Part shown: in pieces, positions 45,531 to 48,212 of the stretch | How positions within the stretch are numbered: position 1 is the stretch's first letter | Layout of the letters: each line of letters opens with the position of its first letter | NCBI RefSeq assembly: GCF_055900595.2 | Contig: NZ_CM148325.1 | Length of the DNA: 64,000 bases | Strand: one strand, 5' to 3' | Made by a program: the position numbers and the translations under genes | Notes under the pieces: model-generated | Told to the model about the DNA's origin: nothing | Database searches by the model: none | The model's input: only the letters and a program-made list of their open reading frames with translations

Positions 45531-45559
45531 GGAGGCGAAGGTGCCTCCCGTTTTATTTT
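45531..45559 (+). terminator. Rho-independent terminator of ompR-envZ (GGAGGC-gaaggt-GCCTCC + TTTTATTTT)
   Basis: Perfect 6-bp stem with T-rich tail 9 nt after the envZ stop. Confidence 0.75.
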
Positions 45560-45685
45560 GTGCACTCAGTATCTACTGAATGAATACGGTTTCAGACATC
45601 GGCACCATACGAAGTAAAGTGTACTGTAAGCTGATTGCAGGCTAGCGTATCCTGATTAGTAAAAGCACACTAAAGGAATAGCTTG

Positions 45686-46969
45686 ATGCAACTTACCAAC
45701 GAAGAACAAGTACAGATTGCTCGTATAAAAGAAAAAATCCCACGCATTGCCGCACTGGATCCTGAATGTAAGTTATTCGGTTCTGAAGGTTGGAAATATC
45801 AATGGCCGAAGCCTGCCAGCGAGGCGGAAATAGCTTCCTGGGAGAAAAAACATAGCGTCACTTTGCCACGGGAATATCGAATTTTTCTTCGCTATATCGC
45901 TAATGGCGGTCCGGCACATGCCTACGGTCTTGAATCTTTAGGCGGTACAGATATTTATGGCGATATAACAAAAGAAAGCCCTGTACCGCTTTATATGACG
46001 CAGCAGGATGTTGATGTGTTGAATGCTGGCCGTACAGAAGATGATGAAGAATATAGTTTTTTTGACGGCGCATTGACCATTCTCACCCTGGGATGTACTT
46101 ATGATATTTGCCTGGTGGTGACGGGGCAGTATCGCGGAAGGTTAATGCTGACTGATGGTGATGAAGATTATCCGTTTGATTTTATATATGATAAAAATTT
46201 CCTCAACTGGTATGAACGCTGGCTGGACGATTTTATTGCTGGCATGAGTATGAAGGGTTTCGATAGAAGTTTGCCAGGAACGCAAATTCAACTGCGTGAG
46301 TGGTTTTTAACTGAGAAAATCCCGGATTTACGTAGATCCATTTTATTCTCGCTATGCCGTTTTCCACAGATAGAACCCGAAACATTTGCCCTTTGGGAAC
46401 ATGTTTGCCACACAGAGAATGATAAAGAATTGTGTGAAGAGGCATTCATAAGATTACGCCAAAAAAAAGTTTCTTGTGCTGCAGATATTTTTCGACTCTA
46501 TTTTACAATGCCAGATGAATTACGTGATATTGCTATTAAAGATCTCCGTTTTGCCTGTAGAGATAGTGTGGTGAATATTGAGGATTATATTCATTCACTG
46601 TTAATAATAATGCCTGAACTTGACGATGACACTCTATCCTCAGCTGTCTTTGCTATACGAGAAACAGAGTATAATAAATATGATACTTTTCTGCCGCTTC
46701 TCGAACGTATCACTGATGACCGTCAGCAAACATTATTGTGGGCGATGAGTAAGGCGCCTGATTTCAATGAAAGCCGAGGATTCATTGAGTTGGTATTACC
46801 GCTTTTTGCATCATCAAAGATGGAGAATGTAAGGAAGGCTATTTTGTTGCTCATTGAAGTTAAAGATAATCGTATTCCACCATTGGTTGATGAAGCTGCA
46901 ACTCGTTTCCCTGAACTGACCATTTTACGAGAAAACTACTATCTCAGGACGTGGGGACATAAGCCATAA
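45686..46969 (+). CDS. SMI1/KNR4 (SUKH-1)-like domain protein with C-terminal helical-repeat region; accessory gene
   Basis: 427-aa ORF (ATG 45686 with AGGAA 8 nt upstream); motif WEKKHSVTLPREYRIFLRYIANGG and downstream FFDGALTILTLG...GRLMLTDGDEDYPF match the SMI1/KNR4 signature as I recall it; GC content visibly lower than the flanking genes. Confidence 0.7.
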   Translation: MQLTNEEQVQIARIKEKIPRIAALDPECKLFGSEGWKYQWPKPASEAEIASWEKKHSVTLPREYRIFLRYIANGGPAHAYGLESLGGTDIYGDITKESPVPLYMTQQDVDVLNAGRTEDDEEYSFFDGALTILTLGCTYDICLVVTGQYRGRLMLTDGDEDYPFDFIYDKNFLNWYERWLDDFIAGMSMKGFDRSLPGTQIQLREWFLTEKIPDLRRSILFSLCRFPQIEPETFALWEHVCHTENDKELCEEAFIRLRQKKVSCAADIFRLYFTMPDELRDIAIKDLRFACRDSVVNIEDYIHSLLIIMPELDDDTLSSAVFAIRETEYNKYDTFLPLLERITDDRQQTLLWAMSKAPDFNESRGFIELVLPLFASSKMENVRKAILLLIEVKDNRIPPLVDEAATRFPELTILRENYYLRTWGHKP

Positions 46970-47006
46970 ATTAATGGTTCAGAAATGATCTAACGCGGAG
47001 AAAAAT

Positions 47007-47537
47007 ATGATCAGGGAACATATTCAGCAAGCGATAAATAATAGGTTAGCCTTTGATGGCCCATTCAATGTTGTTCCTGAACCTGCAAGCACTGCGTTTG
47101 ATAGCCGGATCCCGACATTGAAAAACGGTGTCTGGCAGAAGGCCAGCCCTATGTTGCAGGCGCGTTTTGCACATTGTGGACGTTGGTTAAGCGCTACACA
47201 TGGAAGCTGGCTAAGTATAAGTGACATGGAAACGCTTTGGCAGGAACACATAGAAGATACGTTTCTTGATGAAATCAAAATGAATGCTGTAGCTTCAAGT
47301 GATAATTGGGATAACCATGCCTTGGGACTATTTCGTTCTCATCGCCTGTCACTTTTTGCCGGTAGTGATTACAGTTATGAAATGGTTTTTCTCCTTTGGC
47401 TAGATAGTACCGTTGAGCCAGAGGTCTGGGTTTATGACTGCAATGGGGAATCACGTTATAAAGATCTTAATGATTACCTGAATGCATATATTAATGATGA
47501 CGTAAGCGCCTGTGAGTGCTCCTGGCGAGTAGAATGA
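47007..47537 (+). CDS. Small hypothetical protein, possibly SUKH-superfamily-like; accessory gene
   Basis: 176-aa ORF with GCGGAG ribosome-binding site; C-terminal segment LFAGSDYSYEMVFLLWLDSTVEPEVWVYDCNGESRYKDLNDYLNAYI resembles the C-terminal half of SUKH-type immunity domains (weak, by eye). Confidence 0.6.
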   Translation: MIREHIQQAINNRLAFDGPFNVVPEPASTAFDSRIPTLKNGVWQKASPMLQARFAHCGRWLSATHGSWLSISDMETLWQEHIEDTFLDEIKMNAVASSDNWDNHALGLFRSHRLSLFAGSDYSYEMVFLLWLDSTVEPEVWVYDCNGESRYKDLNDYLNAYINDDVSACECSWRVE

Positions 47538-48160
47538 ATAGCCCCCCTTGCCCCTTTGATCCACAAACCGCACATTACCTCGGCACAGTGCAAATCCACT
47601 ACACCCAAACCGCCTTCAACGCTGCCGTTAAGCATTATACCTGTTACATTAAAAAGCGTTTTAAAGGGTTTAAATGGGGAATCCGAACCGCTGGCTTATT
47701 GGCTATACTGCCCATGATCCCACAATGGTTGAAACCTTCTCATGACTTTAAACTCAACGCAATCAGTACGTTAATTCTTCTATTAATGTTGCCACTCCTC
47801 TTATCAATGTTCCTGTTAATCAGCAGAAGAATTAACGATTTTAAGTCAAAAACAAAGCAAGTTACTTTTACGAAACCCGTGCGTTATGCGTTTTATTTCG
47901 AGGGGATTGTTTTTTATGAATCTCATCAGCAGGGCATACTTCGCTGGGAAGATTTTTATAGCATTGAGTATGAAGAAGATTATTTGTGGCTTTTTCTGCA
48001 TTTACCGAAGAGTTGTCCCAGAGAAGCGACGAAAGCGTTTTGCGATATTTTCATTCCCACCAGTGCGATAAAAGCGCAGCCTGAACTGGATACGTTTTTT
48101 CGTGAAACACGCCACTCGCTGGATTATCTGTTTGTCCCGTTTAATTCTGACAGAAAATAA
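47534..48160 (+). CDS. Two-helix membrane protein with a C-terminal domain resembling YcxB-like / bacterial PH-like domains; accessory gene
   Basis: ORF 47516..48160; the probable ATG 47534 overlaps the upstream stop in an ATGA (translational coupling); two hydrophobic helices (LLAILPMIPQWL, ISTLILLLMLPLLLSMFLLI) are followed by a soluble ~100-aa domain. Confidence 0.55.
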   Translation: MNSPPCPFDPQTAHYLGTVQIHYTQTAFNAAVKHYTCYIKKRFKGFKWGIRTAGLLAILPMIPQWLKPSHDFKLNAISTLILLLMLPLLLSMFLLISRRINDFKSKTKQVTFTKPVRYAFYFEGIVFYESHQQGILRWEDFYSIEYEEDYLWLFLHLPKSCPREATKAFCDIFIPTSAIKAQPELDTFFRETRHSLDYLFVPFNSDRK

Positions 48161-48163
48161 CAT

Positions 48164-48192
48164 ATCCCCCGTATCTGGTGAAACGGGGGATT
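48164..48192 (-). terminator. Hairpin (tcccccgt-N-acggggga) downstream of pck, probable pck terminator
   Basis: 8-bp inverted repeat 20 nt past the pck stop with T-rich sequence 3' on the minus strand. Confidence 0.5.
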
Positions 48193-48212
48193 TCGTCGCT
48201 TAACTTATCGGA

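Follow-up and report, generated by a model that had tools for sequence, protein, structure and literature searches.

Polyimmunity loci have been described as tandem, co-oriented and tightly spaced immunity genes that come without a toxin and whose content varies between strains (Zhang, de Souza, Anantharaman, Iyer and Aravind 2012; PMC3482391). SUKH domains are the commonest component of these loci, HEAT repeats are among their immunity types and multi-domain polyimmunity proteins exist; an adjoining XerC/D-type recombinase is found in several of them and is not required (PMC3482391). Moreover, orphan SUKH immunities that are only 38-39% identical to the cognate protein protect (PMC12247911). 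Here we analysed 64,000 nucleotides (nt) of contig NZ_CM148325.1 (NCBI RefSeq assembly GCF_055900595.2; this whole stretch is hereafter the window), in which an insert of three genes, g1, g2 and g3, separates envZ from pck. The published description of polyimmunity loci matches this insert and, given that diverged orphan SUKH immunities protect (PMC12247911), we therefore read it as a small islet of orphan immunity genes. We consider it likely that the insert is a strain-variable polyimmunity islet that travels by recombination in the core genes on either side, and at least one of its genes, probably two, would be a stand-alone antidote against toxins injected by rivals. It would then represent a locus type already described rather than a new defence system.

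Like the published polyimmunity loci (PMC3482391), the islet consists of tandem immunity-type genes in one orientation, with very short spacers and no toxin; g1 and g2 together provide the two such genes, and g1 resembles the polyimmunity proteins. Unlike those loci, it has three genes of which two are of a recognised immunity type, YcxB, the family of g3, being no described immunity family; it also lacks an adjoining XerC/D-type recombinase and sits in a core-gene spacer of 75 nt. All three genes are on the + strand. g1 (45686..46969) encodes 427 amino acids (aa) with a SUKH-1 (SMI1/KNR4) domain and C-terminal HEAT/alphaRep-like repeats; g2 (47007..47537) encodes a SUKH-fold protein of 176 aa, a putative orphan relative of an Rhs-toxin immunity family; and g3 (47534..48160) encodes a YcxB-family protein of 208 aa with two predicted transmembrane helices and a PH-like domain. 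The spacing is 37 nt between g1 and g2 and -4 nt between g2 and g3, where the stop of the former and the start of the latter share ATGA at 47534-47537. The GC content of the insert is 0.418 against a window mean of 0.518 (standard deviation 0.024 for windows of the same size), and it is the lowest-GC stretch of ~2.65 kb anywhere in the 64 kb. GC at third codon positions is 0.35-0.44 in the insert genes compared with 0.60-0.67 in envZ and pck. Three co-directional open reading frames (ORFs), the ATGA coupling and an atypically low GC content had been proposed from inspection of the letters (hereafter the original prediction), and all three hold up, the ORFs also agreeing with the RefSeq annotation of an identical genome.

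We are confident that g2 has the SUKH fold. The original prediction had called it SUKH-like, which is right for the alpha+beta fold but not for sequence profiles: no Pfam family was found for g2 at E<=0.1 or for its 28 homologues at E<=0.001, and there was no NCBIfam match. A toxin partner emerged from genomic context. In Pectobacterium parmentieri, a 56%-identical homologue of g2 lies 19 nt 3′ of a VgrG-DcrB-PAAR/Rhs gene. Scanning the contexts of g2 homologues with one genome per species yielded 23 loci, and at 9 of these the g2 homologue begins 4-113 nt after the end of one and the same toxin tip of ~125 aa (two species of Pectobacterium, Lonsdalea, Serratia, Burkholderia, Azovibrio, Aggregatibacter and Sphingomonas, the last with two loci). 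With E. coli D6 added, the tip and a g2 relative occur together in ten genomes of eight genera. The tip comes after the Rhs DPxGL motif and contains invariant GHTPDVGWGG and VNSYxGGATQA motifs; copies lie at L056:5950-6423 (E. coli D6), L004:5553-5978, L026:7560-7985, L023:7559-7984, L039:867-1286 and L036:7565-7984, each given as locus and positions. No Pfam, NCBIfam or PDB family matched the tip, and an I-CreI-derived match (E=0.0013) was dismissed on per-domain E-values above 5. Members of the g2 family thus stand directly downstream of a toxin C-terminal domain; homologues of g1 and g3 showed no such toxin neighbour in the contexts examined.

The D6 locus (L056) allows comparison with the Rhs-CT/RhsI pairs of type VI secretion system (T6SS) VgrG-DcrB-Rhs effectors. 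There the tip terminates such an effector and is followed by a 176-aa immunity gene that is 54% identical to g2 over the full length, placing the D6 immunity and g2 in one family. Unlike those pairs, g2 has no Rhs, VgrG or toxin tip nearby: its neighbourhood is envZ upstream and pck downstream, and no similarity to Rhs or VgrG was detected anywhere in the 64-kb window, as expected from the earlier statement that no toxin adjoins. Since no toxin gene adjoins it in this genome, g2 is an orphan and not a cognate immunity. Among 5,426 complete E. coli genomes, which form our survey set, the VgrG-DcrB-Rhs module with this tip is present in 70 and is nearly clonal; none of the 67 of these 70 carriers that were listed has the islet. 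Identity is 55-69% among the cognate immunities and 67-79% among their toxins, and g2 is 54-56% identical to each cognate immunity. Taken together, the genomic contexts make a strong case that g2 is an orphan member of an immunity family cognate to one Rhs C-terminal toxin, and we infer from this that g2 may neutralise that toxin.

Orphan relatives of g2 are also found in larger arrays. In Corticimicrobacter, one adjoins a SUKH_6 gene within an array of small co-oriented ORFs, and homologues of 46-57% identity are present in arrays of small co-oriented ORFs in Bacteroides and Parabacteroides. The array of Bacteroides sp. M10 (L031:6145-13685) starts with an integron-type tyrosine recombinase, the g2 homologue being the second gene after it, in a layout like that of the rAID arrays; a further long array of small ORFs with a g2 homologue occurs in Bacteroides (L027:4490-13286). 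As far as sequence can tell, these occurrences imply that the g2 immunity family has spread across phyla. In the AID/rAID arrays of Bacteroidales (PMC12247911 and work cited therein), orphan immunities that have diverged from their T6SS-linked cognates (35-62%) are still protective and SUKH proteins are involved; the islet resembles them in this, and in having g2 homologues within Bacteroides and Parabacteroides arrays, one of them beside a tyrosine recombinase. In contrast to AID/rAID, the E. coli islet is tiny, has neither the tyrosine recombinase nor repeat-bounded orphan immunity cassettes, and appears to move by homologous recombination in its flanks.

The second immunity-type gene, g1, is named an SMI1/KNR4 family protein by RefSeq and is recognised by SUKH-superfamily profiles (Pfam PF09346 and relatives), with SMI1_KNR4 at E=2.7e-6 over residues 43-152 and SUKH_6 at E=3.4e-5. 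The motif LPREYRIFLRYIANGG, which had been taken as its SMI1/KNR4 (SUKH-1) signature, is present. The label SUKH-like was therefore apt for g1 but too narrow: the SUKH domain spans residues ~43-170, and HEAT-type repeats make up about 250 aa more. A profile built from 19 homologues matched alphaRep/HEAT structures in the PDB with E down to 2.5e-18 at positions ~300-430, the last ~130. A g1 relative stands alone between core genes in Klebsiella aerogenes, and others lie at the yoaA-yoaB junction in other E. coli (39% identity; L015-L017:7001-8275) and in Superficieibacter (48% identity; L019:7001-8284), where a DUF4253 gene follows. We note that yoaA-yoaB is a further small core-gene junction with immunity-type (SUKH+HEAT) genes. 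Plasmid-borne SUKH+HEAT relatives of g1 are solitary, for example as Tn3 cargo. CdiA, Imm31 and polymorphic-toxin genes surround a truncated SUKH-only homologue (54% identical) on a Serratia plasmid, in a contact-dependent inhibition/polymorphic-toxin region that is split by insertion sequence (IS) elements and an intron; immediately upstream of this homologue there is no intact gene. From its domain types, we predict with moderate confidence that g1 is an orphan immunity or polyimmunity protein.

In the model of g3 (pLDDT 74), an N-terminal strand and helix precede two hydrophobic helices, after which comes a beta-sandwich that carries a C-terminal helix. The transmembrane helices are predicted at residues ~49-66 and ~75-95, followed by the PH-like beta-sandwich. 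This is the architecture and fold of YcxB proteins (two transmembrane helices, PH-like sandwich, C-terminal helix), and the structure supports assignment of g3 to that family. The Pfam YcxB match (PF14317; E=0.57, residues 123-156 only) is not significant; the proposal of a YcxB or bacterial PH-like membrane protein is supported by structure. The sequence family is tiny: a search of 1.84 billion proteins yielded 15 representatives at E<=0.001. Distant relatives of g3 are solitary. Our literature search returned no functional study of YcxB. The YdbS/YdbT-like proteins DdE and DdF of bacteriocin loci (PMC8657885) likewise combine two transmembrane helices with a bacterial PH-like domain behind them, and they too belong to antibacterial-toxin loci; unlike g3, they are PHb2 (PF03703) and not YcxB (PF14317) proteins and act in the export of bacteriocins by Gram-positive producers, so that the likeness is an analogy only.

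In the survey set, the insert is present in 18 of 5,426 genomes and g3 in 19, i.e. it is absent from 99.6%. K-12 lacks the insert, in line with the original prediction. A RelE/ParE-NadS pair occupies the envZ-pck spacer in 1,329 genomes (24.5%), an IS200/IS605 transposase sits there in some, and in one genome the site holds g3 fused to hl, a gene for a HEAT-like protein (hl::g3). The remaining E. coli spacers appear to be empty or to have occupants that were not counted. Within E. coli, this spacer (45555-48212 here; L002:555-1227) shows multi-state polymorphism, and a literature search gave no published account of it as a hotspot. The g1-g2-g3 trio was found only in E. coli and E. albertii. 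At the same site, Escherichia sp. MOD1-EC7003 has hl (~143 aa), g2 (66%) and g3 (64%), and one strain of Salmonella enterica has hl, CdiI_5, a CdiI_5 fragment and g3 (81%). A 346-aa hl::g3 fusion is present in Escherichia sp. E4742 and E. coli A30, and the reverse fusion g3::hl, of 365 aa, in other Salmonella-type contigs. Loci with hl and g3 lie at L006:6001-7041 (hl::g3), L043:7001-8098 (g3::hl), L021:7483-9194 and L011:3348-5618. Overall, the site contains g1-g2-g3, hl-g2-g3, hl-CdiI_5-CdiI_5′-g3, hl::g3, g3::hl or RelE-NadS, or is empty; its content thus differs among related strains, as that of polyimmunity loci does.

Across these variants, hl accompanies g3 everywhere outside E. coli except in E. 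albertii, which has g1-g2-g3. The hl-g3 fusions exist in both orders and are conserved in several 90%-identity clusters. hl itself gives a weak HEAT_2 match only, and homology between hl and the HEAT region of g1 was rejected (hhalign probability 0.4%). An hl homologue (44% identity) on a plasmid of Chondrinema litorale (L057:3655-6420) shares a co-oriented array with an SMI1/KNR4 gene. The same array includes a 144-aa protein whose sequence suggests, by eye, two transmembrane helices and a beta-rich domain; it was rejected as a g3 homologue for want of significant similarity. The recurrent pairing of g3 with a HEAT-type protein hints at a possible functional pair. It is conceivable, if doubtful, that g3 joins a HEAT-type partner (hl or, in this DNA, the HEAT half of g1) in a two-part unit not recognised before, possibly a membrane-anchored device for immunity or toxin interception; the envZ-pck site would be defined by that unit, between whose halves soluble immunity genes such as g2 and CdiI_5 would have been captured without a recombinase.

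The same pairing bears on the view, already raised in the original prediction (there as defence-like or stress-related), that the locus is a self-contained module; it could act in abortive infection or stress. Here g1-g2-g3, or the HEAT-type protein with the YcxB protein, would work as a unit whose membrane effector is governed by a SUKH/HEAT sensor, and the likeness to immunity genes would be incidental. Such a module would account for the operon-like layout with its ATGA overlap, for the retention of a HEAT-type protein with g3 in all site variants and for the maintenance of fusions in both orders; moreover, the RelE/ParE-NadS pair uses the same spacer in about a quarter of the genomes, and g3 has a weak match to PycTM in PADLOC (PADLOC-DB 2.0; E=0.0097, 14 bits). 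That match, however, lies over hydrophobic helices. PADLOC has nothing for g1 or g2, and PHROGs gave no significant match for any of the three. The g1, g2 and g3 families are found singly and apart in other genomes, the trio is confined to two species, g2 is linked to an Rhs toxin, the HEAT part of g1 has no detectable homology to hl, and the Chondrinema hl homologue shares its mixed array with a SUKH gene, an arrangement typical of immunity genes. We therefore regard such a module as unlikely. An anti-phage defence system was likewise rejected, as none of the three proteins had a significant defence match in PADLOC, PHROGs or NCBIfam; a literature search on SUKH proteins in anti-phage systems found nothing relevant.

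The constancy of g3 invites another explanation, namely that g3 is the resident gene, an accessory envelope protein that possibly works with EnvZ/OmpR, that the upstream genes are later insertions and that the locus is no functional unit. g3 is indeed the sole gene common to the Salmonella and Escherichia variants, is always beside pck and is accompanied by the same hairpin. Moreover, the last part of the Salmonella hl consists of the first 12 codons of g3, as though an hl-g3 junction had received the CdiI_5 genes. We nevertheless consider this explanation very unlikely, as g3 is missing from all but 19 of the surveyed genomes, its composition (GC 0.413) is as atypical as that of the remaining insert, it was imported along with flanking pck sequence (see below), and one Salmonella-type variant has the order g3::hl.

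Several observations weigh against reading the insert as a polyimmunity islet. With three genes, it falls short of the extended polyimmunity loci of four or more, and the recombinase that adjoins several of those is missing. g2 lies at the edge of its family (54-56%), so that cross-protection is not assured. A toxin adjoining g1 relatives was sought in seven contexts and none was found, these relatives being mostly solitary between core genes or Tn3 cargo; g1 is also interrupted, as a pseudogene, in two E. albertii strains. g3 lacks any toxin link, its distant relatives being solitary genes. Its constant pck-proximal position and its repeated pairing or fusion with a HEAT-like gene are not what a bag of independent immunity genes predicts. 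Finally, in the leader 5′ of g1 (45555..45685, + strand), downstream of the envZ terminator, the promoter scan found no consensus sigma-70 promoter. An AAGGA ribosome-binding site lies in this leader 9 nt before the ATG, and an Rfam scan of leader and insert brought no family near its threshold.

Some of these points would also suit a decaying, functionless remnant of a toxin-immunity locus that hitch-hikes with envZ-pck recombination: the broken g1 in E. albertii and the missing promoter, to which may be added the rarity of the insert (18 of 5,426) and the CdiI_5 fragment and fused ORFs at related loci. We think this quite unlikely. In the 18 E. coli islet genomes, each of the three ORFs is intact and g3 is 97-100% identical, ribosome-binding sites and translational coupling are kept, and the site has no trace of any toxin gene. 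Moreover, dN/dS between E. coli and E. albertii is 0.16 for g1, 0.36 for g2 and 0.37 for g3; all three genes are under purifying selection between these species. The orphan immunity islet remains our preferred reading, and the original prediction of an orphan immunity cassette was right in substance, given the SUKH-1 domain of g1, the SUKH fold of g2 with its Rhs-tip partner family and the absence of a toxin; an immunity part for g3 is not included in this.

How such an islet might travel is suggested by its borders. There is no integrase or recombinase between envZ and pck and no mobility gene in the insert; neither direct nor inverted repeats bound its genes, and no target-site duplication or tRNA-type site was found. 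A mobile element (transposon, integron cassette or integrative island) was therefore rejected, the junctions being those of a spacer replacement. A search for homologues on plasmids gave none for g3 and only distant ones for g1 and g2. In the E. albertii type strain NBRC 107761 (L020:9170-9630), rearranged pieces left from the 3′ end of pck come after g3, together with a second copy of the last 277 nt of envZ, terminator included. Comparable pck/envZ 3′ remnants are present in another E. albertii strain (L010:5750-6101), and in E. albertii the resident nadS-relE pair and an intact pck come after the remnants. This is the scar that would be expected from integration via flank homology. As a separate observation, strain L010 has a fimbrial-adhesin-like gene of 399 aa (11-1210) upstream of the islet, and L010:2411-2650 is an orphan fragment matching the C-terminus of that gene, at a place where envZ is expected. 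In the Salmonella enterica strain with CdiI_5 (L011:5671-6700), the 3′ ~1 kb of pck is 90-98% identical to the window and thus Escherichia-like, compared with 79-90% over the same stretch in another Salmonella (L043:8163-9200), which indicates an inter-genus import along with g3. Recombination in the flanking envZ and pck therefore appears to carry the islet between Escherichia and Salmonella.

At the left border, homology to K-12 stops at 45554, and the last 44 nt of the 75-nt K-12 spacer are replaced without duplication. The replacing segment is therefore 45555..48212, i.e. 2,658 bp. The envZ intrinsic terminator (45531..45548, + strand) was recovered by the terminator scan, as an inverted repeat and in the K-12 spacer alignment, and marks the left boundary. 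At the right, the stops of g3 and pck are separated by a GC-rich hairpin (CCCCCGT / ACGGGGG, 10-nt loop) at 48164..48192. This hairpin is absent from K-12 and insert-borne, and loci of E. albertii, Salmonella and Escherichia sp. conserve it along with g3. It has a weak T run and was not among the terminators called by the scan; it could be a candidate terminator for both g3 and pck. These boundaries amend several details of the original prediction. The K-12 spacer is short and without genes, as had been stated, but measures 75 nt and not a few hundred bp. Both terminators had been held to be intact, which is only half right since the left hairpin is common to K-12 and this DNA and the right one is not K-12 sequence. 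The insert had accordingly been placed between two terminators, a placement that holds on the left, the right hairpin lying inside the segment. Over the surrounding ~27 kb (33500-60000), compared with K-12 for a signature of import in the flanks, identity is uneven at 89-99% per 500 nt, ~96% overall, and is only slightly lower beside the insert. This unevenness over the whole neighbourhood indicates that the source strain is fairly divergent from K-12 or mosaic here.

In the mechanism that we propose, g1, g2 and g3 may be co-transcribed as one set. g2 would act in the cytoplasm, where it would bind and block the ~125-aa C-terminal toxin injected by rivals as the tip of a T6SS VgrG-DcrB-Rhs effector, and would thereby shield a cell that does not itself make the Rhs toxin. 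g1, whose SUKH-1 and HEAT parts are both known immunity-type binding modules, could have the same role against another toxin. For g3, translationally coupled to g2, we can only guess at protection at the membrane or anchoring of an immunity partner; any immunity role of g1 or g3 is putative. The islet would travel by recombination in the flanking envZ and pck, having no mobility genes of its own.

In the gut and other crowded habitats, it is orphan immunity genes that decide which strains survive contact-dependent attack. Here, ~0.3% of sequenced E. coli hold immunity-type genes at a core-gene junction, which would amount to pre-emptive immunity. Because g2 matches a T6SS Rhs toxin deployed by ~1.3% of E. 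coli, a testable attacker-defender pair may exist within one species, and the toxin tip on the attacking side constitutes a family outside those of Pfam, NCBIfam and the PDB. Recombination in housekeeping flanks seems to pass the genes among E. coli, E. albertii, other Escherichia and Salmonella, without the machinery of a mobile element. Moreover, the envZ-pck locus offers a defined context in which to probe the function of the YcxB family. Should g3 and its HEAT-type partner prove to be a two-part unit, this would provide a first function for the large YcxB family and a recombinase-free route to immunity arrays in Enterobacteriaceae.

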